Shown here: one piece after another, positions 2,939 through 53,995 of the stretch | Layout of the letters: every line of letters starts with the position of its first letter | How positions within the stretch are numbered: position 1 is the stretch's first letter | Source of the DNA: Dictyostelium discoideum | Lineage: Eukaryota | Reading direction: 5' to 3' | DNA length: 64,000 nt | Assembly: GCA_000004695.1 (NCBI GenBank) | Contig: CM000151.3 | Span: 1,440,001 to 1,504,000, forward strand | Program-made: the position numbers and the translations under genes | The notes under the pieces: model-generated | The model's input: the letters and a program-made list of their open reading frames with translations, nothing else | Told to the model about the DNA's origin: nothing | Databases searched by the model: none

Positions 2939-5940
<3,002 letters not shown>

Positions 5941-6146: not shown

Positions 6147-6835
6147 GGATTTTTATAAATTATAAAAGAGTGATAGAGGGGAAAGCCATATAATATTGGA
6201 TTTATTTTTGTATTATTAGAACATCACTGGTTGAAATATAAATATTTATTTGATTTTGTTTATGTATTTTTCAACTTTTTTTTGAAATTATACTTTAAGA
6301 ATATTTTTTTTTCCAATATTTTTTTTTTTTTTTTTTTTTTTTACATTTAATCTATAAATAAAAAATTAGGTTAGGGCTTTTATTTAGAAAAAACTAAGAT
6401 TATAATAAAATGATACCCCCTTTACTTTCCTTATTTTGAATATTTTCAGATTTGGCAATTTCTTTTTTTGACTATTAGATTTTACTTAAAATAGTAAAAA
6501 TTCCTTTTTTTAATTTCAATTAATTTTTAAATTGAAAAATGATTCAGTATAAATAGAATAAACTTTTTGAAAAAAAAAAAAAAAATAATCACTCAAAAAA
6601 ATGAAAAAAAAATAACAAATAGAAAAGAAAAGTAAACCCAACTCTAAAAATTAAAAAAGGTTTAGATAAAAGTTGACAGTCTAAAATAAAAAAAAGAAAA
6701 AGGGTAAAGTGATTGAAAAAAAATATAATAAAAAAATAAATAGCAATCTAACTTTATATTATTATTATTATTTATATAGTAATTTCCAAATGAAAAGGTT
6801 TTACATTCAATTATAATCTAAATAATAATATATGA

Positions 6836-7010
6836 ATCAATACCAATCAAATGATATAGAAAGGAAAGATTTATCTATGCACTATATCATAAAGAAAGGT
6901 TGATCATCATATAAATTTTATTTTCTAAAGTAATAAAATGAATCAATATCAATCAAATGTCAGAGAAAGGAAAGATTTATCTATGCACTATGGCATTTTG
7001 AAAGGATGAT
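6836..7010. repeat. Two tandem roughly 85-bp units, each carrying an imperfect palindrome (atgatatag...ctatatcat) around a conserved core gaaaggaaagatttatctatgcactat
   Basis: Seen directly. Unit 1 is about 6836-6920 and unit 2 about 6925-7010. The array is intergenic and is followed by a (TA)n run. Confidence 0.6.
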
Positions 7011-7077
7011 GATATCATTTATAAAAAATTAGAAACCAAAAAACCAAAAATAAAATAAAAAAAAAGCTTTAATAAAA

Positions 7078-7082
<5 letters not shown>

Positions 7083-7170
<88 letters not shown>
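7083..7170. repeat. (TA)n microsatellite, about 44 units
   Basis: Seen directly. Confidence 0.9.
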
Positions 7171-7175
<5 letters not shown>

Positions 7176-8192
7176 CATTATTGTTTAAAAAACCAATTTA
7201 ATTATTTTAAAAAATAAAAATAAAAAACTACATCCTTTTTTGTATTATTAATAAAAATTCAAATTCAATTGGACTAGAATTAACCAACCGGCGCTAAATC
7301 GAGTGGTGGTTGTGGAGGAAAAGGTGATCAAATAATCATGGTCGTGGTAATGGTCATGGCCACATAGCCAGGCGGTAAAGGTTCAGGAGGTTCAACAATT
7401 GTAGTTGTTAATATTTAATACTTTGAATATTACTACAATTGTAATAATAAATTATTTAAAATAAAAATCGCACCTATTAATTTTTTTTTTTTAAAAAATA
7501 ATAATCTTTTATTTTTATTTCTATTTATCTATTTATTAAATTTAAAAAGGTTACAATTTCATTGCACAATTAGTATCTTATTTATTCGTGAATTTAAAAA
7601 TTATATTTCTTAATTTATCCCTGAATTAAAAAATTATTAACCTCTGATTAAACTTGATCAATTCTTTTATCATCTGTACTCTAAAGATTTACTACAGGAG
7701 TTGAGCCTTGATAAATGTTATAATTATTATTATTATTTTTTTTTTTATTTTTATTTTTTTTTTTAATGCATGTGGGTATTAAAAAATTTATCAGGTAAAC
7801 ATCCCAATGAATTTATTACCTCTGGGAGATTTTGTTTGTGTATATTTTTTAATTTGTTTCTTCTTACTATGAGGAAAACAAATAATAAAAAAATACCAAT
7901 AAGAAACATAATTTGATAAAGACTAAAATTTAAATCGAAACCAATCATTTTAATATTAAAATCAAAAATTGGTTAAAAGTTAAAATAAAAAAAAAAAAAT
8001 TGATTTTTTTTTTTTCTCAAAAATCCCTCAAACAACAAAAAAAAAAAAAAAATAAAAAAAAAAATCTTTTTTTTTTTTTTAATTTTTCATTTTTTTTATC
8101 ACTTAAAAACGTTTCCTAATCCTTTAAATTAAATTCATAGTCGACCAATAGATCAAACAAAATATAAATTAGAAAAATAAACAAATAGAATA

Positions 8193-12058: not shown

Positions 12059-15000
12059 ATGACAACATCAACAATTGAAAATGGAGCATCATCACCAATT
12101 ATTGTATCATCATCAACACCAAAACTTTATCAAGAAGGAGCAGGAGTATGGATACCAGATCAAGAATTAGGATGGATTGGAGCAGATGTAATTGAACATT
12201 CAGAGACATCAGCAGATCAAGTATTAGTTAGAACAGAGGATGATAGAGAAGTGAAAATACCATTAAGTAAAGTGTTTCAAAAGAATCCAGATATATTGGA
12301 AGGTGTTGACGATTTATCATTTTTATCACATTTACACGAACCTGCAATCTTACATAACCTCCATCACCGTTATAATTTGAACCAAATCTATACATATATT
12401 GGAAAGATTTTAATCGCAATCAATCCATACACATCATTACCACTGTATGGAAAGGAGATGATCAGTGCCTACTATGGTAAACAATTGGGTACATTAGCAC
12501 CACACGTTTATGCCGTAGCTGAAGATGCTTTCAAAGATATGCGTTATGATGGTACAAGTCAATCAATTTTAGTATCTGGTGAATCGGGTGCTGGTAAAAC
12601 TGAAACTACAAAATTCTTATTACAATATTTTGCTGCGATGGGTAATATGATTAAAGAATCAACATCATCATCATCAATAAATGGAATTAATACATCATCT
12701 GACGGTATCCCAGTAACACCACCACCTTCACCAATGAAAAAATCACCTGTTGATAAATCGGTTGAAGAAAGAGTTTTAGAAAGTACACCATTATTAGAAG
12801 CATTTGGTAATGCTAAAACTTTAAGAAATGTAAAAAAAAAAAAAAACAAAAAACAAAAAACAAAAAACAATTATCATTTATCATTTTCTAACTTTTATTA
12901 TTATTATAAATATTATAGGATAATTCATCTCGTTTTGGTAAATTCATTGAAATTCATTTTAATGAAATGGGTTCAATTATTGGTGCAAAAATTTTAACAT
13001 ATTTATTAGAAAAATCAAGAATTGTAAGACAAGTTTATAATGAAAGAAATTATCATATATTTTATCAAGTAAGTAATAGTATTTATATATATATTATATA
13101 TATAAAATATAAAAATAAAATTATTAATTTTTTTTATTTTTTTTTTTTTTTTTTTATTTTTTTTATTTTTTTTTTTATTTAAAAAAGTTATTATCAGGTG
13201 CATCAGAAGAATTAAAAGAAAAATTAAATTTAAAAACAATTGAAGAATATAGTTATTTAAATAAGAGTGGATGTTTTGAAATTGAAGGTGTATCGGATGA
13301 AGAGCATTTTAATAAGACATGTCATGCAATGCAAGTTGCAGGTATAACATTGGTTGAACAAGAGAATGTATTTAGAATATTATCAGCGATTTTATTGATT
13401 GGTAATTTTGAATTTGAAAATATAGCCGGATCAAATGATGATAGTTGTCAATTGATTGATCGTGACCCATTGGAGAAAGTATCGGTATTGTTAGGATGTG
13501 CACAACCTGATGAATTGTTGAATTCAATGTTAACACGTAAAGTGGTGACGGGTAAAGAGTCGTACATATCACATAATACAAAAGAGCGTGCTGAGAATGC
13601 AAGAGATTCATTGTCAATGTTTTTATATGGTATGATGTTTGATTGGTTGGTTGTGAAAATCAATTCAAGTATGTCGATTTCAACACAACAAAAATCCAAA
13701 TCGTTCATTGGTGTATTGGATATCTATGGTTTTGAATCGTTTGAAGTGAACGGGTTCGAACAGTTTTGCATCAATTATGCCAATGAAAAGTTACAACAAT
13801 TATTTAATCAACACGTTTTCAAAGAGGAGCAACAGGAGTATATAAAGGAGAAGATCGATTGGTCATACATTGATTTCAATGATAATCAAGATACTTTGGA
13901 TTTAATTGAAAAGAAACCCATTTGTATATTGACCTTACTCGATGAGGAGACTATGTTCCCCAAGGCCACACCTCAGACATTGGCAACTAAACTTTACTCA
14001 AAAATGACAAGTCATAGTAAATTTGAAAAGCCACGTTTCTCATCGACTGCTTTCACAATCAATCATTATGCTGGTAAAGTAACCTATGAAACTGATCAAT
14101 TCCTTGACAAGAATAAGGATTTCATAATTCCTGAACAAATTTCAATTTTACAAAGATCAAATTTCTCATTCATTAAAGTGTTAATGTCACATTCTGATAA
14201 GTTCACTCAATCACCTGGTGGCCATCCACAAGGTAATGGTGGTCCAACTTCTTCCAATACAAAGGGTACTTCAGGTTCATCGTCAATGAAATTCCTTTCT
14301 GTTGGTTCACAATTTTCAACATCACTTGCAACTTTAATGAAAACTATTTCAACTACAACACCACATTACGTTCGTTGTATTAAACCAAATCCAGAGAAAT
14401 TACCTCAAACTTTTAATAAACAAGATGTAATTCATCAATTACGTTGTGGTGGTGTTATGGAATCTGTTAGAATTTGTTGTGCAGGTTTTCCAACTCGTAG
14501 ATTATTATCTGAATTTTATCAACGTTATAAAATTTTATATGTAAAAGATATTAATACTGGCAGTGGTGGTGGTAAGAAAGGTTCAAATAATAATAAAATT
14601 AAAGATCCAAAAATTTTAGTTCAAAATTTATTAACTGGTATTGAATTATCAGATGATAAATATAAGATTGGTTTAACAAAAGTATTTTTAAGAGCTGGCC
14701 AATTGGCAAGTTTAGAAGATATGAGATTGGAGCAATTGGATCGTAGTGCAACAGTTATTCAAAAGAGATGGAAAGGTTATTTATATCGTAAACGTTATAA
14801 ACAACTTAGAGATGCATCATTGATAATTCAAACTAAACTTAGATCAGTACATGCAAAACAACAATTATCAGCATTACAACGTACTCATTCAGCCATTTTA
14901 ATACAAAAAGTTTGGAGAGCTCATAGGGATAGAGTTCAATATCAAAAGATTAGAGATGCTTCATTACAATTGCAAACTGTAATGAGAAGACATTTATTCT

Positions 15001-18000: not shown

Positions 18001-19004
18001 CTCTTACACTTTTCCTTTATAAAAAGAATTTAGTTAAACATTTAAATGGTGCAAATTCAATTATGCCAATCATACCAACATTGGGAGATTTAGAAGAATT
18101 AAATGAAAGATTATCACATCAATCATTAACAACTAGTGGTAAATTCTCTGGTGGTGGTGGTGGTGGTGGTATTGATTTCATTGATCAATTACAACAAAGT
18201 ACTGGTATAACTTTTGGTTTAATATTTAAAGCTACAACTCTTAAATTATCACCATTGGTTGATGGTGCAATTTTAAATGAAAATTATAATAAGAAATTAA
18301 CATCAATCTCTGCTTCTTCATTTGGTAGTGGTAGTTTTGGTCTTGGTTCTAATGGTGTTGGTAGTGTATTATCAATTGAATTGATTACAACTTATCTCTC
18401 TTCAATCATTACAATATTCCAACATCGTATGGTACATTTTACATTATCACAAAGATTCTTTAATCAAGTATTTTGTTGGATTGGTGCTTTAATAATGAAA
18501 GGTTTCATGTTGAGACAAACTTTTTGTACAGAAACATTTGCTACCTTTGTTAAAACAAAGATTGACTTTTTAACTAGATGGGCCGATGATATTGGTAATG
18601 TTTGGGTTGGTGATGTCGCTAATGCTTTCCAACAAGTTAGAGAGGTCATCAATGTTTTAAATATTAAAGATAAAGAAAAGATCATCGATGATAAAATACG
18701 TAAACAATATTGTCCAACTTTAAATTCAAATCAATTGAAACAAGTCTTATCTTTATTCTCTCCTGGTGAGTTTGGTGGTAAACGTGTCTCTGCTAAAGTT
18801 ATCGCCTCCATTTGTCCACCAAATAAATCCTCTGCTGGTCAATCCTTTGTTCAAGATGAAAACAAATTAAATACAATTCCAATTGATTCTTTACATTATT
18901 TAGAAATTCAAGATATTAAAACACTTTCTTTACCACTCTCTATAAGACAAACAATTGAAACTGAAATCATTAATTTAAAACAACAAATTGCTTGTAAAAA
19001 ATAA
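12059..19004 (+). CDS. myoJ: Class V-type unconventional myosin heavy chain, 2245 aa. It has a motor domain, six IQ motifs, a roughly 1000-aa coiled coil and a C-terminal DIL (dilute) cargo-binding domain. Exons: 12059..12829, 12919..13068 and 13188..19004.
   Basis: Motor-domain motifs are GESGAGKTE and [12 protein letters not shown]|[14 protein letters not shown]...NYHIFYQ|LLSGASEE. The two tiny introns have donors GTAAAAA at 12830 and GTAAGT at 13069, and acceptors tag at 12916-18 and cag at 13185-87. IQ motifs ([14 protein letters not shown]..., [14 protein letters not shown]... and others) fall near nt 14750-15180. A long Q/E/K-rich heptad region follows, then a DIL-like tail (...[42 protein letters not shown]...). 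The exon sum is 257+50+1938 = 2245 aa, which is the length I recall for Dictyostelium MyoJ (Myo5B). The symbol is assigned from memory of that length and domain order, not from a search. Confidence 0.8.
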
Positions 19005-19248
19005 TAATAAAAAAAATAAAAAATAAAATTTTATAAAAATTTAAAATTATTAATTTGTAAAAATAAAAAGCTTTGTAATAATTATAACTATAATAAAATT
19101 TTATTTGGTTTCTTTTTTTTTTTTGATTGGATTTCTTGTAAATTTGGTAATATTTGGTAATTTGAAGTTCATATTAAGGAATTATAATTTTGAAATATAG
19201 TGTTGTTATTTTTACAATCATTACTACTTTTTTTTTTTTTTTTTTTTA

Positions 19249-19990
19249 AAAAAGACATCCTGTTTTTAAATAATTTAGTATTTAAAATTAAATAAATCAA
19301 ATAATAAAATTATAAGAGTATTTGATTAGATGAATTGGTCGAAGGAGCTAAGATTCGGAAGCACCGATTTTTGGAATATAATATACTTTTCCAGCTAATT
19401 TTCCTTAATTAATTTAAGGAAATTGTTTGGGTCTTTAAATTTGTATGAAAGTTTAAATTTTTTTTTTTTTTTTTTTTTCATTAATATTTATTAATCACAG
19501 TTTATCCATCCATAATTAATGGTTTTATCTATTTATTTTAATTTTAGAAAGTAAAGAAGATACTCCTTTTATTCATTTGATTTTTTTTTTTTAGGATTGA
19601 TGAGATCAATTTTCTATAAAAAAAAAAATCAGTTGCTTAGATTGATTGATCGAATGAGACAGGATTCGGGAGCACTGATTCAGGAATACAATATACTTTG
19701 CAAGTTAGTTTCCTTTAATAAAATCATTTAGGTCATTAAAATTTCTCTGATCTCTTTAAATCTTTTGCTTTTTATTATTTAATTCTTGAGTAGTTTATAG
19801 CATTTATTAAATTAGGTCGTTGTAATTCTAATGTTCCCTTACATTAAAGAAAAAATGACCATGTGGGTCTAGATTTTCTTTATGGTGGAGAAGTTCAATG
19901 GTGAACTTCTTGCATGATTTTTTTTTTTTAACTTAATATTAAAAATAAGGATTAACCAAGTAAGATAAAGAAAAGCACTTCCCAATTTAA
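19249..19990. repeat. Series of oligo(T)-tailed modules, oligo(A) on the minus strand, including two diverged copies of a roughly 90-bp core (about 19322-19410 and 19640-19730)
   Basis: Copy A reads gattagatgaattggtcgaaggagctaagattcggaagcaccgatttttggaatataatatacttttccagctaattttcctt. Copy B reads gcttagattgattgatcgaatgagacaggattcgggagcactgattcaggaatacaatatactttgcaagttagtttccttt. They are about 75% identical. T-runs sit at 19229-19247, 19441-19466, 19581-19590 and 19911-19921. The modules lie just 3' (minus sense) of the TRE-like element. Confidence 0.5.
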
Positions 19991-20128
19991 TCAACATTTT
20001 TTTTTTTTTTTTTTTTTTGATATAAATAAACTATTGTAGTATACGATTAGTATGTTATTTTTATTTATTTATTTTAGGTTTTTTAGTTTTTGTGAATTTA
20101 AAATGGTATGTTATTTTAGATTAGGTAA

Positions 20129-23100
20129 TTAATAATTAATTGGTGGTGTAATTGTTGGAATTGGTTCATTTGTGTTTATGCTCCATTCTTTTTTAAATTT
20201 TTTGATTGTTTCGGACCATTGGGTTTCTTTTTGAGTTTTTGTGAGGTTGTTTTTAATTGAGTATTGGTTGAAGTTTGATAATGTTCTTGAATATTCCAAT
20301 CTTATTAGCTTGTGCCATTTTGATTTTAATATATCATAATCTAGTGTTGTGTTGTTTATTTGATTGTTCCGATTATCAAATGATTGAGTTATATTGATGT
20401 CAAATAATGATTTGCATAACCATATCCATATTTGGTGAATAACTAATGAGATTATGTTCCAATATGCATGTGTTCTGACTAGATCAAGATTTGTGTTTAT
20501 ATAATTCCAGTTGAACCTGTATTTTTTATATTGTGCGTTTTCTGCAAAATGAAAATTAATATTGATAGTTGGATCTGGTTTAAATGCTTTGTTGTTTGTT
20601 TGTGGTTTATAAATGAGTGTGTATAATTTTGTTGTTTGGTTTTTTGTTAGTGACCAGTTTTTGTTTCTATTGCAATTTTTATATAAAAAATATTTTAATT
20701 TGTCGTGGTTTATGAAGTTGATTGTGTGCTGACAATTGAAAAACAAATGACCATAGGGATCATTATTCATTTCATTGTTGCAAATGGGGCAAACTTTGTT
20801 GTGTAGATGATTAATTGGAAGACATCTAGCATGGAATCTTTGCATTGTATCACGGCCTTTTGGATCTTTTAATTTTTGAATTTTGACAAATAGTTGGTCG
20901 TATGTGTATTTCCATAATAGTTGTATTGATTGTTGGTGCGAAGTAAGAAGTAGATCTGAATATTTCTTGCCAACATAGTCTTTTGATTTGCATTGGTGAT
21001 TGTTGAGTATTGTCGAGTAGAATTCTTTGAGTGTTGGTGGTAGTGAAATATTATTTGTGGTTAATGTTAGAGAGGTTTGGTTTTTTATTAATATTGGTTG
21101 TAGGATTTGAACTTTATCTTTTAGATGTCCAATTTGAGTTGCATAGTTTTCCCATTTTTTTGATTTTTATAAGGTATGGAGAAGAGATTGATTTGTTGAT
21201 GATTTGATCCATCCAACTTATCATGTATATTGAATTGTTTGCAGATTTATGCATTTGTAAAAATCTGTTGTATATCCAAATCTTTTGAGCAACTTGTCGT
21301 AATTGTATATTCCACATACCCCAACCACCTTCTTTTAATGGTTTTAATGATCTATCATAACACATCAAAGGTATTTTTGCACGGAATGGATGGTTGATGT
21401 GTTGTTTTTAATGGAATTGGTATTAGAGTTGGTGATTCAGAATTTGCGGGAGAATTCATAAACCATGAGATTAATTTATTAATTTGAATTTCTTCATCTT
21501 TTGTAAATTCTTCAAGGTATGATAAATATGTTATTGGTGATAGTGAGTAGGTGTTTATGATGGTTGTTTTTGTTTTTAATGTTGTGCCACTAGTTTTCCA
21601 TAGTACTAATGATTTAATCAGTGTTTTCATTGTTTCTGGTAATTTCCTATGTAAACCCCCTATGATTAAAGAAATAGCCAAGGACTCTTTCTGATTGATC
21701 TTTTTTGGTTATTGGGATTCTTTTTGATTGTGGAATGTTGTTTATTATGTGTTTATCAGTGATTTTGTGGGGGTTGATTTCTATTATTGCACTTTTGTCA
21801 AAATTTAATGATGATGATGTTGAAGCGCAGAAATTATCGAAATGTTTGATTGATTGTTGTTGTTGTTCGTAGTTGATGTTGTATGTTGTAGAGTCGTCTG
21901 CAAATTGGGTAAATTTGATTTTAATTTGTGGATTGGGTGAAATTGGTAATCCAATTATTGAATTGTCTGCATTTATTGTTCTTGCTAATATTTCAATTAC
22001 AATTACAAATAAAGTGGCTGAGATTGGGTCACCTTGTTTTACACCTCTTTTAATATCGAATTTTCTGGTCGTTTTACCATTAATTGAAATTTTTGCTTGT
22101 GAGTCAGATAATAGCTTGTGGATTAAATTTATTAATTTTATTGGTATACCAATATGAATTAATGTTCTTTTAATGCTATCGTGAGAGATAGAATCAAATG
22201 CTTTAAAGAAGTCAAATAGTGTGATGATACCAGGGAGGTTTTTAGATTTGAGGTAGTTGATTAATTCATTGATGTTGATGATGTTGTCTATGATGAATCT
22301 GTGGGGTACGAAACCAGTTTGGTTGTTATTGATGATGAAAGGAAGTATTCTCAGAAGACGTGCATTGATTACTTTGAGAGGGATCTTGTAATCAGTGTTT
22401 AGAAGTGTAATGGGACGACGATTTGATATGAGTAAGGGGTTGCCTTTCTGGTATATTGTGTGTATAAGACCTTCGGTGAATTCTGTTGTGATGTGGTGTG
22501 GATTTTCTAGTATATCGTTGAATAATGTAGTGAGAATTGGTTTAACTTGGTTTAAATGATTAATGTAAAATGCATTTGTAACTCCATCTGGACCGGGTGA
22601 TTTGTTGGGGTTACTGGTTTTAATTGCAGCTTCAACTTCATCTTTTATAAAAGGTGAGTCTAAACCATTCCAATATTCATTTTTTATGATGGGCCATGTG
22701 TTTAGCATGAGCTAGTGAGTAATTGGACAACATATTTGTAAGCTATATAGATTTGTGTAGAATTCAACAAAAGCATTTTCAATTTGGTCGGGGTCGGATG
22801 TAATGATGTTTCCATATTGGATTGATTCAATTTTTGCATCTTTTGATCTTTTGTTTAGTATTGCTGATAGATACTTGCTAGGTATTTCTCCATTTATATG
22901 TTTTTTTAATATGTTTGTGTGGTTTTGATGTAATTTGTTTTTGTTACATATAATATTGTATTCAGTGATGCATTGTTCTTCAAGATGTTTGAATTTTGCT
23001 GCTTTTTCTAATAGTATTTGTTTTGCACGTTGAGTTTGTTTGTCTTTGTTATATTGATAGTTTTTTAGAGTTTTAATAATTTTTGATTTTACTTTTGACC

Positions 23101-23953
23101 AATTTGTAAATTGATTGTTGATGTGTTATTGTGATTAGTTATTAAATGATTGATAATATTGATTGCTTCATGGTCATTTGCAGTACCAGGTGATAATATC
23201 CATCTTTTCTTATGTTTATTTATTTGAAAAGGTGAAGAAATTGTTGTTGATATTGGATTATGATCTGATAATGAAGATGGAATTTGGTGGACTTGTGTAT
23301 ATATATTTTCAGGGTCTATTCTATTGTATTGAGTATATATTCTATCTAATCTGTTACCATGTGTATGAGTTGGAGTGGTTTTTAAATTCACCTTGATCAA
23401 TTAGATGGTGTTGGTATGTGTAGGATTGGATAATATCATCTAATAGTGAATTGTCGTTGTGGATACAGTTGAAATCTCCTGCGATAATAGATACATGTTG
23501 GGATTGGTTTGGTATTGGGTTTGTTGAGTGGTTGTGGAGAAGTGTTTGTAGTGAAGTTGCATATGAATTCTTTTTGATGGTATTATTTGATGCTGGTGCG
23601 TAAATTCCAAGAATACCAATTGGTAATTGATTTGGAAATATAACGTCTGCTAAAATAGCTCTACCATCAATTGTTGATATGTGTTTGAGTTTGAGTGTGT
23701 TTGGGTTATGGTTAATGATGATTACACCATTTCCTCGTTTGGTGACAGAGATGATGTGATCGGGAAAATCATGTTTAAGTTGTAATGGTGATGAATTGAG
23801 TTCAGTGAGTATTGAAATTGTTGGACGCGGTGTAAGTTTTGATATAAGTAGTTGTAGTGTGTCAACAGGTTTTTGGTAGGAATTGTGGTGATTGTTGGGG
23901 TTTTCAGTGAATCCTCTACAATTCCATGTTATAAAGTTGATTTTTGAGCTCAT
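20129..23953 (-). pseudogene. TRE-like ORF2 with endonuclease, reverse transcriptase and a C-terminal Cys-rich domain, broken by multiple frameshifts
   Basis: The six-frame pieces are 23354..23953, 23089..23400, 21647..22708, 21355..21681, 21114..21368 and 20129..20845, all on the minus strand. They are collinear but fall in different frames. Confidence 0.7.
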
Positions 23954-25156
23954 ACCTTACTAGGTTTGGAAGCACCAGTATTGACTGGTTGTGTAGTCAG
24001 GGCATTGCTGCTTCTTCTTGGATTTATTGGATTTGGAGTTGGTGCACTTGGTTTGTTTGGTTGAGATTGTAGAGGTTTTTGTGGTACAATTGTTGGATCG
24101 GTTGGATTGCTCATTGATAATGAGTTTTTCCCGTTATTATTATTTGAAGAATCACTTTTGTGTGAAATTTCATTATTGTTTTGGGATTGATTGTTAATAT
24201 CAAGTGATTCATTTAGTATAGCTTTTGAACCACTATTTTGAAGTGAGTTATTATTGCGATTGGAATTTGCAATTTCGTTGATTGGTGGGGTGTTAATGTT
24301 GTTTTTTGGTGGTTGATTGTTTTTGTTCATGTTTGGGTTTGTGATGGCATTTTTTATAGTTGTTGCCATATCTGCATTTTTTGCATGTTGAATTTTGTGT
24401 TTAGTGACACTACGTGTTGCAGCTTTGATATATCTTGTGATACCAGATGGTTGTTCGATCTTTTGATCAACAATGTTGTGTGTGTGATCAATTAGATGAT
24501 ATGTTATAATGTAACTTTTAAACGCAACAGCATATGAGTATGTGACAGTAAATGATTCAATTGATGTACAACTGGTGAATTTAGTGAGGTTGTTTGTAAT
24601 TGCCTCGTTTGCATGTTTGGGTGAGTACGTTTTAATGAATGTTTTAATGATTGCATAATCATTTGATGATATATCGAATCTATAGTTGAGTTTGTCGATA
24701 TTTAGTGCAAGTTGGTTTTGAAGGTTGATTATTGAAGTTAATTTATCAACGTTGCAATTTACGAAGGCAGTTGCACCAATTATTTTAAATGCTGATGGCG
24801 ACAGTATATCTTCGAAGAGTTTGTGAATGTTTTTGTGAATTTGTTGGATTCTTGTGTCATCTTTAGAGGTTAATTCTTCACGGATGTGTGGTTGATTAAA
24901 GTAACACTTAATGTTGATGGTGTTATTGTTTTTTTCTAAGAAAGAGAGTGGTCTTGTGATTGATGGAGGTGCAATGATATCTAATTGATTATCAAGTCCT
25001 TTGTTTAGTGAGAGTTGGTTTGTTGGGGTTTGTTTTTTAGGTGTGTCGATTTTTGCACTTTTGTTTTTTGTTGTTGAGGTTGTGGAGGTATTATTTGTAG
25101 GTTGTGTTGTTATCTGTATGATTTAACTGTAATTCAGTTGAGTGATCATCAGCCAT
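23950..25156 (-). pseudogene. TRE-like ORF1 with one apparent frameshift near the N-terminus
   Basis: The minus strand reads ATGGCTGATGATCAC... (MADDHSTELQLNHTDNNTTYK*). From the +1 frame a continuous frame follows: ...NNTSTTSTTKNKSAKIDTPKK...HAKNADMATTIKNAITNP...ASKPSKV, ending at 23950. Confidence 0.55.
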
Positions 25157-25311
25157 TGTTGAAAAGTATATAGGACGATAGCCCTTGCTTTATTGAGCAA
25201 AAAAAGGGTAAAATTAAGAGGAATGAATGTGGCGGTGAAGATATAACAGTGATTTATTTATTATATGTATAAATTCTCGTTTATTTCTTTGTTTTTTCGG
25301 TATCAACATAT

Positions 25312-25322
25312 AGAATCGAACC
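25312..25322 (-). promoter_or_regulatory. External B box (exB, GGTTCGATTCT) about 29 bp downstream of tRNA-Phe
   Basis: The minus-strand sequence GGTTCGATTCT matches the B-box consensus GGTTCGANTCC. Dictyostelium tRNA genes often carry a second, external B box downstream (established knowledge). Confidence 0.6.
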
Positions 25323-25350
25323 GGCGATCATACCAACAATTAAAAAAATT

Positions 25351-25424
25351 TGCCTCAGGCCGGGATCGAACCAGCGACCTTAAGATCTTCAGTCTCACGC
25401 TCGTACCAACTGAGCTACTAAGGC
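25351..25424 (-). tRNA. tRNA-Phe, anticodon GAA
   Basis: The minus-strand sequence GCCTTAGTAGCTCAGTTGGTACGAGCGTGAGACTGAAGATCTTAAGGTCGCTGGTTCGATCCCGGCCTGAGGCA folds as a cloverleaf with a 7-bp acceptor stem, the D-loop AGTTGGTA, the anticodon loop CTGAAGA and the T-loop TTCGATC. It is 74 nt with discriminator A, is followed by a T-rich Pol III terminator, and has no encoded CCA. Confidence 0.9.
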
Positions 25425-25480
25425 TTTTATGAAATTTCTGTTTTTTATAGCAGTATAAATATTATAAAACGGAAAAAAAA

Positions 25481-25810
25481 CAAATCTCTTTTTTTGATTA
25501 TTTCATTTTTCATATAAAAAAGACTTAAAAAACAAATAAATAAATAAATAAACTATCTTAAAAAGCCATCTTTTTACTTTATTGTAATTTATTATTTGTT
25601 TCGTTTTGAGAATTTTGCGTAGCAAAATTTTCAAAAAAAAGCAAAAAATAATCAGATCGAAAAAAAACAAACAACAACAACAATCTCTTTTTTTGATTAT
25701 TTCATTTTTCATATAAAAAAGACTTAAAAAACAAATAAATAAATAAATAAACTATCTTGGACAAAAAAGATGTTTTAATCAAAAGTAATAATACAATTCA
25801 AAATTCGAAA

Positions 25811-25851
<41 letters not shown>

Positions 25852-26150
25852 TAAACCAACCCCTCTTTTAGAGACCCTGTAAAAAAAAAAAAATAAAATA
25901 AAATAAAATGAGATCTAGCATCTCAAGGAGAAGCAAATAATAATTGCGTTATCCAATTCAAAAAAAAAAAAAAAATATTATAAAACTCTTAGACCATGTA
26001 AAAAAAACTAAAAATAAAATGAGATCTAACATCTCAAGGAGAAGCAACTAATAATTGCGTTATCCAATTCAAAAAAAAAAAAAAATATTATAAAATATTT
26101 TCAAAGAGAAGCAACTAATAAATGCGTTATCCAATTCAAAAAAAAAATAT
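25481..26150. repeat. Repeat cluster immediately 5' of tRNA-Phe. It holds a 77-bp direct repeat at 25481-25557 and 25681-25757, plus about 2.5 tandem copies of a roughly 120-bp unit at about 25870-26150.
   Basis: The 77-bp repeat is caaatctctttttttgattatttcatttttcatataaaaaagacttaaaaaacaaataaataaataaataaactatctt, present twice about 200 bp apart. The tandem unit reads ...gaccatgtaaaaaa..aaaatgagatctaRcatctcaaggagaagcaaMtaataattgcgttatccaattcaaaaaaaaa..atattataaaa... The first copy starts about 57 bp upstream of the tRNA 5' end. Confidence 0.6.
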
Positions 26151-27055
26151 TGACAATCAAAAATGTCGAATTTTCCCTTTTGATGGTTTTCTGTAGATAA
26201 TAACCCAAAAATGGTCATTACTTTTATTGAAGCTATAGTCGTTCGTTACAATAATAAAAATTAGTATTATTTTAATTATTCACTTTTAGCAGATTATGTC
26301 AACTCATTTAATAAAATATAAAATGTAAATTAAAATATTATTATCAGTTTTTTTTTTTGGATTTTACTATTTAATAATAAATAAATCTTATTTGTTTTTT
26401 CAATTCTATGTATATTCAATCAATTTAATTTAATTATAAAATATAAAGAGAATTGAAAAATTAAATAATTTAAGATTAAATAGATCACTTTTGTTAAATT
26501 TACTTTTGTTCCATTTGCTTTACTTTTATTTTCTTTTTTTTACATAGACTACTTTTGTAACACAGTTATAAATTATGTATCGAAAGAATTCTTTGTAATG
26601 AAAGTAAATGTATCTAAATTAAATGTAACAAAGTATATGTAACGAAAGTGTTCTATTGTAATCCAATCGAAAGTAATAATTATTCTTTCTTTACTTCTTT
26701 TATTGATAGTGTAGAGTTATAGATATTAAAAAAAAAAAAAAAACAAAGTTGCATTAGAATACACAAAATGCATTAATGAAATATTCCAAGAAAAAAAAAA
26801 AAATATTCCTGAAATAAAAAAACGGCAAGTTTGAAAAAGGATAAGGAAATTTTCTTTTTTTTTTTGTTCTAAAGTACACTTTTTTATTTTTTTTTTTATT
26901 TTTTTTTTTAATTATCAGATTGATAAATTATAAATTTTGTAAATTTGATTTGAACTATAATGAATAAATTATTGTGAAGAAAAAAAAAAAGGGAAATAAA
27001 AATGGAAAAAAAAAAAAGTATAAAAAAAAAAATTTTGAAAAAAACTCTTTTTCTT

Positions 27056-32038: not shown

Positions 32039-34743
<2,705 letters not shown>

Positions 34744-34984
34744 TTTTTTTTTTTTTTTTTTTTTTTAAATTAATATTTATAAAAATATAAATACTATAAA
34801 TACAAAAAAAAAAAAAAAAAAAAAAAATATTTATATAAAAAAAAAAAAAAACAATTCCATTTTTTATGTATAATAGCGAATATGGAGGAAATAAAAAAAA
34901 AAAAAAAAAATTTTTTTTTTTTTGAGGGCGAATTTTGTATTCTCTTAAAAAAGAAAAATTTGAGTGAAAAAAAAAAATCAACCG

Positions 34985-35021
<37 letters not shown>

Positions 35022-35262
35022 ATTCCCAAAATAGTTTTTTTTTTTTTTTTTTTTTAAACATATTTTCAGAGATTTTCCTTTAAATAAAAATATTAAAATA
35101 AAAAAATTAAAATTCTAATAAACAATATACAATTATTCCATTTTTTTAATTTTTTTAAACTTTTTTTTTTTTTTTTTTCTTTTTTGGGAAACGAAATGAA
35201 GAAATTAATAAATCTAATTTTTTCATATTTTTTTTTTTTTTTTTTTGGAATTTTTTAGTTTT

Positions 35263-52517: not shown

Positions 52518-52590
52518 GCTCGATTAGCTCAGTCGGCAGAGCGTGGTGCTAATAACGCCACGGTCGCAGGTTCGATCCCTGCATCGAGCA
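52518..52590 (+). tRNA. tRNA-Ile, anticodon AAU
   Basis: GCTCGATTAGCTCAGTCGGCAGAGCGTGGTGCTAATAACGCCACGGTCGCAGGTTCGATCCCTGCATCGAGCA folds as a cloverleaf with acceptor GCTCGAT/ATCGAGC, the D-loop AGTCGGCA, the anticodon loop CTAATAA and the T-loop TTCGATC. It is 73 nt. Confidence 0.9.
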
Positions 52591-52634: not shown

Positions 52635-52696
52635 CACTTCTGAAAAAGGGAAATAAAGATCCTGGAAATTAAAAAAAAAAAAAAAAAAAAAAAACC

Positions 52697-53961
52697 AAAC
52701 AACAAAAATGCTAGTGGATTTCAAGTTATTAATTTAATGAGAACCAAAAGAGCAAGATACCCACTAAAAGTAGGGGGCTGGAACATTTGGAATATAGAAT
52801 TGAGACAACTGGCGCAGAAACTTTGGATCATAAACCAGTTCATCCTAGCACTAGAAACCAAACAAACAAACTCATCTCATCACAAAAGCTGGGAATATCA
52901 GATCCAAAAAAACAAATTCACATCCAGATACCTAAAAGAAAACTTAGACGAATGGAACAAAATAAGAATAAAAAAAGCAATTTTCAACAATAATCTCACA
53001 TCCATAAAAAACGAAAATGGACAACCACTTTCACTGGCAGAATGGTATACCACAATTCAAGACCAAAATCCACCATCCCTAAAACGGAATTCCAATCATC
53101 TCTAAACTTAAGAGGCTACAGCTATAATCAACTCTTCAACAACATACTGAAGATAAAAGACCCTAAAACAAGAGACACAATGTTTAGATTCCATGCCAGA
53201 TGCCTTCCAATAAACTACCTTCACAACAAACAATGCCCACTCTGCAAAGAAGATATGAGCAAAGACCCATACGGTCACCTGTTCTTCTCATGCAAGAAAA
53301 CAAAACAATTCATAAAAATAAATAAACTCAAAAATTTCATCTATATTACCACAGGCAAAGGTAAAAACTGGCACCATACAAGAATTAGGCAAAATAACAA
53401 TTTCATTAATAGAATAACTCCAAAATTATCACCGATAGCCAAAAAAGATCAAGAAGTGAATGCAGATTACGCCAACCACAGATTCCACAAAGAATACTTT
53501 GAATGGAACTATAAAGCAATAGACTATGATCTAACCAGATCATTCGCATATAGAAACCTAATGGCCCTTATCCTCCACAACATTTGGATTTGGATTTGCA
53601 ATCAAATATACAGTGAAGATCCTTTAACAAATGAATCACTATCATACAGCTCCCTTCTAAAGAAATGGCACAAATTGGCCACTCTAGAATACATCAAAAA
53701 AGCAAAAGATCTAAAAAACTTATCAGCAAAAGACCATAATAACTTCAAAGATCCTAAGATCCTTCTCACCTCAACGATCAAGCTAAGAAAAACAACAGCT
53801 AATTACTATTGTATTCCAGAATCATCTCTCCCAAATATTATATCTTTTGATCAATTCATATGATTAAAATAACCCTTCAGCTTAAATGATAAGCCTATAA
53901 ATAAATATTAAATAAAAACTCGTATTAACACAGATGGATATATATCAATCTTGTTAATCCA

Positions 53962-53995
<34 letters not shown>
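52697..53995 (+). mobile_element. 5'-truncated fragment of a TRE3-like non-LTR retrotransposon. It holds the ORF2 C-terminal Cys-rich region, a 3'UTR and an A29 tail, downstream of tRNA-Ile and its external B box.
   Basis: The ORFs at 52737..53105 and 53042..53863 are about 35-40% identical to the C-terminal ORF2 pieces of the 20129..21368 element (MFRFHARCLPINYLHNKQCPLCKEDMSKDPYGHLFFSCKKT against MQRFHARCLPINHLHNKVCPICNNEMNNDPYGHLFFNCQHT). They sit in two frames, so there is a frameshift. The 3'UTR is about 100 bp and is followed by an A-run at 53967-53995. The flanks read aaaaaaaaaCCAaac (52669-52699) and aaaaaaaaaCCAtct, which may be an A-rich target-site duplication. Confidence 0.7.

Follow-up and report, generated by a model that had tools for sequence, protein, structure and literature searches.

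A probable stack of TRE3 retrotransposon copies downstream of a tRNA-Phe gene in Dictyostelium discoideum

Why does the DNA between a myosin gene and a retrotransposon next to a tRNA-Phe gene of Dictyostelium discoideum carry the same ~90-bp core twice, among several runs of oligo(A)? A preliminary description placed an array of A-tailed modules at 19249-19990 and left two readings, 3' ends of TREs stacked up by repeated integration at a tRNA hotspot or an uncharacterised short non-autonomous retroelement. Our analysis sides with the former. The interval 19160-19996 is very probably the distal part of a TRE3 tandem downstream of tRNA-Phe, built by sequential hits that left a fragment here called X1, then a fragment called X2 and then a full-length element. 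Both core copies lie inside the array as first delimited, but the structure itself extends to ~19160.

The window (the whole 64-kb stretch of DNA that was analysed) is AT-rich, with a GC content of 11-33%. Its tRNA-Phe gene, full-length TRE3, X2 and X1 all lie on the minus strand and are thus co-oriented. A plus-strand gene with two introns, encoding a 2245-aa class-V-like (myoJ-like) myosin, has its 3' end at 19004. Two window ORFs are exact matches to the D. discoideum AX4 proteins DDB_G0272272 and DDB_G0272146, and the window belongs to chromosome 2 of AX4.

TRE3 elements are described as lying 40-150 bp downstream of tRNA genes, in tRNA orientation and guided by a B box or external B box (ex-B box), and ex-B boxes play a role in their targeting (PMC5911963). 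In the published tally, the distance from a tRNA gene to its downstream copy is 14-305 bp, and the copies number 67, 43, 29 and 11 for subfamilies TRE3-A, -B, -C and -D, with 13, 9, 2 and 0 full-length copies, respectively (Spaller et al. 2016, PMC5006619 Table 1).

The repeated core and the C-terminus of TRE3 ORF2

The two core copies, ~311 bp apart, are 76.9% identical over 91 nt (E 1.4e-13), in agreement with the value of about 75% first estimated, and the window contains exactly two occurrences of the 18-nt motif GATTCGGRAGCACYGATT, where chance predicts 0.04. Comparison of the core with the rest of the window by BLAST returned a match to the minus-sense complement of 53807-53855, at the end of ORF 53042-53863. 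In minus sense, the translation of each core corresponds to the C-terminus encoded by this ORF, which belongs to a 5'-truncated element downstream of tRNA-Ile (Table 1). That ORF is 99% identical to P0079, and a database search with it retrieved only Dictyostelium proteins, among them P0082, which ends in KLRKLTCKVYCIPESVLPNIISFDQFI. The P0082 family represents the C-terminal zinc-finger part of TRE3 ORF2 and runs upstream, at locus L005, into an element bearing a reverse transcriptase (RT).

Searches with TRE3 proteins located the same homology on the minus strand in both copies. With P0082, a D. discoideum TRE3 ORF2 C-terminus, tblastn aligned 19640-19714 in the X2 core at 88% identity over 25 aa (E 1.9e-12), and TRE3 ORF2 C-termini matched 19329-19481 around the X1 core (E 9e-9). 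All 11 core copies examined translate to …KLRKLTCKVYCIPESVLPNIISFDQFI followed by a stop codon in register. By its predicted translation, each core comprises the final ~25 codons of TRE3 ORF2 together with the stop (…KLRKLTCKVYCIPESVLPN..SFDQ.I, then stop), in tRNA-Phe sense. Similarity between X1 and X2 ceases ~6 nt past their stop codons because the subfamilies have different 3' UTRs. The core is absent from the full-length element because the extreme C-terminus differs there; the zinc-finger region of that element is homologous to the P0082-type family (41% over 232 aa). No match was found between the core and the TRE5-like DNA upstream of tRNA-Phe in the window.

The preliminary description had proposed a check of the core for copy number and tRNA association. 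Across 212 kb of D. discoideum DNA, an nhmmer profile of the core found 12 copies, nine of them downstream of and co-oriented with a tRNA gene. The sample is biased, since it was TRE3 proteins that led to most of the loci; in the window, which was not selected in this way, the arrangement holds for each of the three core copies. The core is therefore neither unique nor the 3' UTR of a single-copy gene.

Two truncated copies and a full-length element

Table 1. Features of the probable TRE3 tandem at tRNA-Phe and of the reference copy at tRNA-Ile
Feature	Coordinates	Strand	Basis or remark
tRNA-Phe(GAA) gene	25351-25424	-	ARAGORN; integration target
External B box GGTTCGATTC (tRNA sense)	25314-25323	-	Read from sequence; ~28-37 bp downstream of tRNA-Phe
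Candidate target-site duplication ATGTTGAT, 8 bp	25302-25309 (5' copy), 19990-19997 (3' copy)	-	Read from sequence; modest significance, only 8 bp
Degenerate full-length TRE3-type non-LTR retrotransposon, ~5.3 kb	19997-25297	-	Pfam domains, RT identity
Spacer between full-length element and X2, ~65 bp	19930-19996	-	Alignment to TRE3 3' ends
A12 run at X2 5' junction	19918-19929	-	T-run list
X2, 5'-truncated, internally deleted TRE3 of the subfamily with ORF2 ending KLTCKVYCIPESVLPNIISFDQFI	19458-19917	-	tblastn; DNA alignments to L002, L003, L005
X2 zinc-finger remnant (HAR..P.N… and DPHGHFFF)	19834-19917	-	tblastn, weak, E 0.005
X2 ORF2 C-terminal remnant	19640-19810	-	
Core copy 2, last ~25 codons of ORF2 plus stop, RKLTCKVYCIPESVLPNPVSFDQSI then stop	19633-19722	-	nhmmer E 4e-26
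X2 stop codon	19637-19639	-	
X2 internal A12 run	19581-19592	-	T-run
X2 conserved terminal 3' UTR module	19479 to ~19545	-	Alignments
X2 A21 tail	19458-19478	-	T-run
X1, older 5'-truncated TRE3 with a different 3' UTR type	~19160-19457	-	tblastn, UTR homology
X1 ORF2 C-terminal remnant, one frameshift and one stop	19329-19457	-	
Core copy 1, ORF2 end ..KSVLPNLSSFDQFI then stop	19322-19412	-	nhmmer E 3e-23
X1 stop codon	19326-19328	-	
X1 proximal UTR	19248-19325	-	
X1 internal A20 run	19228-19247	-	T-run
X1 distal UTR	19160-19227	-	
5'-truncated TRE3 of a third subfamily, reference copy	52695-53995	+	Downstream of and co-oriented with tRNA-Ile (52518-52590)
ORF2 end of tRNA-Ile element, …YYCIPESSLPNIISFDQFI then stop (RKTTANYYCIPESSLPNIISFDQFI then stop)	53768-53867	+	Homologous to core

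The full-length element carries RVT_1 (Pfam, 1.6e-29) and Exo_endo_phos (1.6e-8) domains, and its ORF2, with APE, RT and zinc-finger regions, is split into several ORFs. Compared with RT proteins of D. discoideum, its RT shows 94-97% identity. The 5' end lies ~51 bp downstream of tRNA-Phe in the orientation of the tRNA, and the A22 tail corresponds to the T-run at 19997-20018, where the preliminary description had counted A28. At its 3' end the element is 97.6% identical to a copy at locus L001, and the element is also present in D. discoideum strain ACTFIT with 99.4% identity (L006, a sequence that ends inside the element). In its distance from the tRNA gene and its orientation, the element fits TRE3 as published (PMC5911963).

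Five T-runs mark the region, at 19228-19247 (20 nt), 19458-19478 (21 nt), 19581-19592 (12 nt), 19918-19929 (12 nt) and 19997-20018 (22 nt). The window contains 168 A/T runs of at least 12 nt, with a density of 5.1 per kb in low-GC DNA, and at such a background frequency oligo(A) tracts alone cannot define modules. Some of the tracts are true tails, and others are unstable A-runs inside AT-rich 3' UTRs.

Upstream of its stop codon, X2 follows the last ~60 codons of ORF2 collinearly and then jumps to the zinc-finger remnant, which points to an internal deletion of ~400 nt; given the weakness of the zinc-finger match (E 0.005), a separate scrap may instead account for the 5'-most 100 nt of X2. 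Past the stop, X2 aligns with the 3' UTRs of P0082-type copies in L002, L003 and L005 (L005b), in which a variable A-rich stretch (with an A-run of 12 nt in X2, 25 in L002 and 47 in L003) precedes a terminal module, …AAAACYATTAATTA…GGATAAAC.GTGATTAATCAATATT(A)n, common to X2 and the P0082-type copies of all three loci. The T12 run at 19581-19592 is internal to one UTR, since both of its sides are collinear with single TRE3 3' UTRs elsewhere, and the 3' end of X2 consists of the terminal module followed by A21.

X1 adjoins X2 and retains ~43 codons of ORF2. Its 3' UTR matches L002 139-233, L003 10781-10876 and L004 11028-11124 with E values of 1e-13 to 2e-15. Beyond T20, the segment 19160-19213 is collinear with L002 and L003, scoring 44 against 21.6 ± 3.7 for shuffled sequence, and 0-1 of 2000 shuffles reach the score obtained for this distal part. 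L004 has only A6 where X1 has A20. Collinear homology on both sides, together with the A6 of L004, identifies T20 at 19228-19247 as an expanded internal run. No clean A-tail follows the end of the X1 homology at ~19160, and the 3' boundary can be placed only approximately, within 19113-19160. With A-runs at the junctions of X1 and X2, neither fragment has a target-site duplication that can be delimited unambiguously.

Local alignment of the spacer at 19930-19996 to five TRE3 3' ends yielded scores that were equalled by 124-659 of 1000 shuffles. A third, very short TRE3 tail was considered here and rejected, as the similarity to TRE3 ends is non-significant. The spacer is probably the original tRNA-downstream flank and, judged by these alignments, appears not demonstrably TRE-derived. 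The A12 run that adjoins it may be either an A-rich target or duplication, the latter by analogy with GTAAATAAAAAA in L003 (see below), or a tail of the spacer. The three or more further segments once proposed, each with an oligo(A) end, thus reduce to two insertions, T12 and T20 being internal and the ~65-bp segment being without TRE3 similarity.

If the full-length element is taken as later and subtracted, X2 would start ~121 bp from tRNA-Phe. Both this distance and the ~51 bp of the full-length element fall inside the published ranges of 40-150 bp (PMC5911963) and 14-305 bp (PMC5006619).

Stacks at other tRNA genes and rival explanations

Stacks of A-tailed, 5'-truncated fragments also occur at tRNA-Thr (L001 6380-7490) and tRNA-Leu (L004 10010-11270), and stacking is likewise seen at a tRNA-Ile gene (L003 9918-10960) and in L005. 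L003 (strain ACTFIR) and L002 (strain ACTFIW) represent the same tRNA-Ile locus in two strains. In L003, a 5'-truncated P0082-type TRE3 directly follows the ex-B box and is bounded by the 12-bp duplication GTAAATAAAAAA; the insertion includes both the internal A47 run and the terminal module. In L002 the same site is empty and holds one copy of the 12-mer; further out from the tRNA gene, both strains carry an older X1-type fragment. This comparison shows that the internal A-run belongs to a single insertion, and that new copies land proximal to the tRNA gene while older ones are displaced outward. An X1-type fragment is the distal member in all three stacks that have one (window, L003 and L004), a position which suggests that the X1 type is an older, possibly extinct subfamily.

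At least three types of TRE3 3' end can be told apart, namely those of the full-length element, of the tRNA-Ile element (P0079) and of P0082, none of them equated here with TRE3-A to TRE3-D; the X1 UTR may be a fourth. The TRE3-A to -D subfamilies are reportedly also covered by Szafranski et al. 1999 and Glöckner et al. 2001.

It is extremely unlikely that the core belongs to a short, SINE-like non-autonomous retroelement mobilised in trans by TRE3 proteins. Such an element would fit the X1-type copies, all of which are short (window X1, L004 10966-11270, the distal fragment of L002/L003 and L001 7351-7490), as well as the published TRE3-D, listed without a full-length copy (PMC5006619 Table 1). 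However, the core aligns collinearly with the end of ORF2 in autonomous TRE3 elements and on translation gives the C-terminus of their protein, its stop codon lying in register. The 5' ends of its copies fall ~43, 40, 17 and 10 codons ahead of that stop, a spread that marks 5' truncation and not a SINE with a defined head. X2 also retains the zinc-finger remnant further upstream, and the copies showed neither a pol III promoter nor a 5' module in common. With the core being coding sequence of an autonomous element, and its copies truncated at differing points, the non-autonomous reading of the preliminary description gives way. That the core instead harbours a hammerhead-like ribozyme or another structured RNA, or a sequence derived from a tRNA or B box, has next to no likelihood. 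A permissive Rfam search of 18900-20200 with cmscan returned only a weak, chance-level match to Hammerhead_HH10 at 19620-19684 (16.5 bits, E 4.2), and the string GGATTCGG is similar to a portion of the complement of a B box. The score falls far short of the gathering threshold of 75 bits (Rfam CL00010), the catalytic CUGAUGA box is absent in both core copies, ARAGORN found no tRNA-like gene here, and the coding explanation accounts for the conservation.

The remaining rivals accept a TRE3 origin and concern the number of events. Local tandem duplication of one TRE3 fragment, followed by divergence in place, would explain why X1 and X2 are adjacent, co-oriented and only ~311 bp apart, but is very unlikely: their 3' UTRs are unrelated past the point where similarity stops, that of X2 matching L002, L003 and L005b and that of X1 matching L004b and the distal L002/L003 fragment, and within the core X2 is as similar to X1 (74%) as to copies at other loci (74-76%). 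Three or more insertions, with every oligo(A) tract (including 19581-92, 19228-47 and 19918-29) as the tail of its own short element, appear unlikely. Very short TRE3 tails do exist, as in L001 6380-6518 (~60-80 nt plus tail), and all five T-runs lie on the same strand. Against this count stand the collinearity of both flanks of T12 and of T20 with single 3' UTRs at other loci, the position of the L003 A47 run inside one duplication-bounded insertion, the lack of significant TRE3 similarity in 19930-19996 and the background of 5.1 A/T runs of at least 12 nt per kb. Repeated TRE integration at a tRNA hotspot, as the preliminary description had suggested, is borne out by the TRE3 ORF2 homology, the co-orientation and the stacks at other tRNA genes.

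Proposed sequential insertion and its meaning for TRE3

The evidence for a sequential TRE3 tandem comprises homology, orientation, collinearity, multi-copy association with tRNA genes and, at another locus, one insertion that is polymorphic between strains; how the copies at tRNA-Phe followed one another we infer from position only. In the proposed sequence of events, which draws on the literature for the roles of TFIIIC and the B box, TRE3 ribonucleoproteins would recognise either the B box or the pol III transcription complex. [quoted passage not shown] X1 would have arrived first, truncated to the last ~43 codons of ORF2 and the 3' UTR. X2, of another subfamily, would have followed at nearly the same spot, ~121 bp from the tRNA gene and truncated within the zinc-finger region, and would later have lost ~400 nt internally. 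The full-length TRE3 would have come last, 51 bp from the tRNA gene, displacing X1 and X2 by 5.3 kb, after which the fragments would have decayed while their A-runs grew or shrank. X1 and X2 are decaying relics for which no function is expected.

The copies share with the TRE3 family of D. discoideum a homologous ORF2 C-terminus, a location on the downstream side of the tRNA gene and ex-B box, tRNA orientation, oligo(A) ends (in X2 and the full-length element), frequent 5' truncation and sequential tandem insertion at one tRNA gene; they differ in nothing essential, apart from their decay (frameshift, stop codon and internal deletion). Insertions of LINE-1 and the L1 clade share variable 5' truncation with complete 3' ends, A-tails and A-rich target-site duplications, of which GTAAATAAAAAA in L003 is an example. 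Unlike them, TRE3 is position-specific for pol III genes, so that repeated hits pile up at one site, whereas L1 insertions are dispersed. TRE5-A, with its C-module 3' end, shares with TRE3 its host, the logic of its targeting and the presence of a conserved module at the end of the 3' UTR, but TRE5 inserts ~50 bp upstream of tRNA genes and in the opposite orientation. Clusters of solo LTRs of yeast Ty3 and Ty1 likewise represent stacked relics of repeated targeting of the same pol III gene; these, however, are LTR elements that lie on the upstream side of the tRNA gene and depend on an integrase-based mechanism.

The layout of the P0082-type 3' UTR raises a further possibility. It consists of the stop codon, a variable A-rich stretch with a run of A12-A47 and a conserved terminal module of ~70-100 nt, and this module corresponds to the entire 3' UTR of the tRNA-Ile-type subfamily. 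A composite origin of the P0082-type UTR, through read-through transcription or RT template switching across a stacked tandem, is conceivable though doubtful; if true, stacks at tRNA hotspots would occasionally seed new composite TRE3 subfamilies. The internal A-runs were considered as junctions of such a composite master, a proposal weakened by the differing positions of the runs among copies. Homopolymer instability in an AT-rich UTR explains these differing positions more simply than a composite origin.

Sequential TRE tandems at tRNA genes are already in the literature, and the locus represents a known and ordinary pattern. For annotation, the DNA from the myoJ-like gene to the full-length TRE3 is retrotransposon debris and not a new repeat family or regulatory array. 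For the reading of Dictyostelium DNA more widely, oligo(A/T) runs, at ~5 per kb of intergenic sequence, cannot alone delimit retroelement copies. Under the sequential TRE3 reading, the tRNA-Phe locus offers a clean textbook case in which TRE3 struck a single tRNA gene three times, the most recent copy lying closest to it. The polymorphic insertion at the tRNA-Ile locus suggests, in addition, that one or more TRE3 subfamilies were still active after natural D. discoideum isolates had diverged.

TRE insertions at tRNA-Ile and tRNA-Thr genes

Comparison of one tRNA-Ile locus between two Dictyostelium discoideum strains (L003, GCA_054859385.1; L002, GCA_054859355.1) revealed a TRE3 insertion that differs between them. 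A 5′-truncated TRE3 at L003 9905–10679 directly follows the external B box and is flanked by a 12-bp target duplication, GTAAATAAAAAA, whereas the corresponding site in L002 (1–110) is empty. Since the site is filled in one isolate and empty in the other, this TRE3 subfamily has, this suggests, been active since the two diverged. Elsewhere in L002 (10001–10985), the public gene model of P0082 (ACTFIW_009326) runs across a tRNA-Ile gene (…SAERGANNATVAGSIPAS…) into a truncated TRE3 ORF2; the resulting ‘protein’, a chimera of a tRNA gene, the external B box and a retrotransposon fragment, is an artefact of annotation.

The window itself contains a TRE3 behind tRNA-Ile that is, judged by its 99% identity to the copies at L004 10043–10965 and L005 13893–14810, young. 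It carries a single frameshift, between ORFs 52737–53105 and 53042–53863, and its junctions suggest a duplication consisting of an A-run plus CCA. In the stack behind tRNA-Thr at L001, the member at 6519–7218 has the C-terminus …AAPNPLPI* followed by an A-tail. Comparison with three TRE3 C-terminal types gave no match for it; it may represent a further TRE subfamily or an ORF2 region with a different truncation.

Features of the window discussed in this part
Feature	Window position	Strand	Remarks
ORF, 786 aa	2939–5299	+	Strongly skewed composition regions; near-equal in length to the 787-aa ORF
Myosin gene, 2245 aa	12059–19004	+	Introns 12830–12918 and 13069–13187 removed
Repeated DNA	25473–26160	+	Upstream of tRNA-Phe
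ORF, 787 aa	47266–49629	+	Strongly skewed composition regions; near-equal in length to the 786-aa ORF
5′-truncated TRE3, different subfamily	52695–53995	+	Downstream of tRNA-Ile

Homopolymer runs and neighbouring genes

A/T runs of at least 12 nt number 168 in the 64 kb, 74 of them at least 18 nt long, with 5.1 per kb in the low-GC DNA of the window. Homologous TRE3 UTR copies differ in A-run length (A6 versus A20; A12, A25 and A47), and this variation indicates that homopolymer runs are strongly unstable through slippage.

Because only ~110–160 bp separate the end of the myosin gene from the distal edge of the TRE3 debris, the 3′ UTR of this gene, or its terminator, may border on antisense TRE3 sequence or extend into it. 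Within this debris, a weak cmscan match to Hammerhead_HH10 at 19620–19684 (+), overlapping core copy 2 and scoring 16.5 bits (E 4.2) against a gathering threshold of 75, was judged to be due to chance because it lacks the catalytic CUGAUGA box.

Window 3642–4732 cross-matches D. cf. discoideum L007 at 12189–13303, the region of the 996-aa ORF 32039–35029. Together with the tabulated ORF pair, this has the look of dispersed members of one gene family or of low-complexity repeats in coding sequence.

Repeats upstream of tRNA-Phe

The repeated DNA upstream of tRNA-Phe comprises an 87-bp duplicate (25473–25559 and 25673–25758, 96.5%), an A38 run (25812–25849) and tandem units of ~66–126 bp each (25834–26147). 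Homologous sequence occurs at L004 9265–9465, ~400–600 bp upstream of tRNA-Leu, and at L001 12428–12720. These repeats are probably TRE5-type 3′ fragments, in which case the tRNA-Phe gene would have been targeted from both sides.
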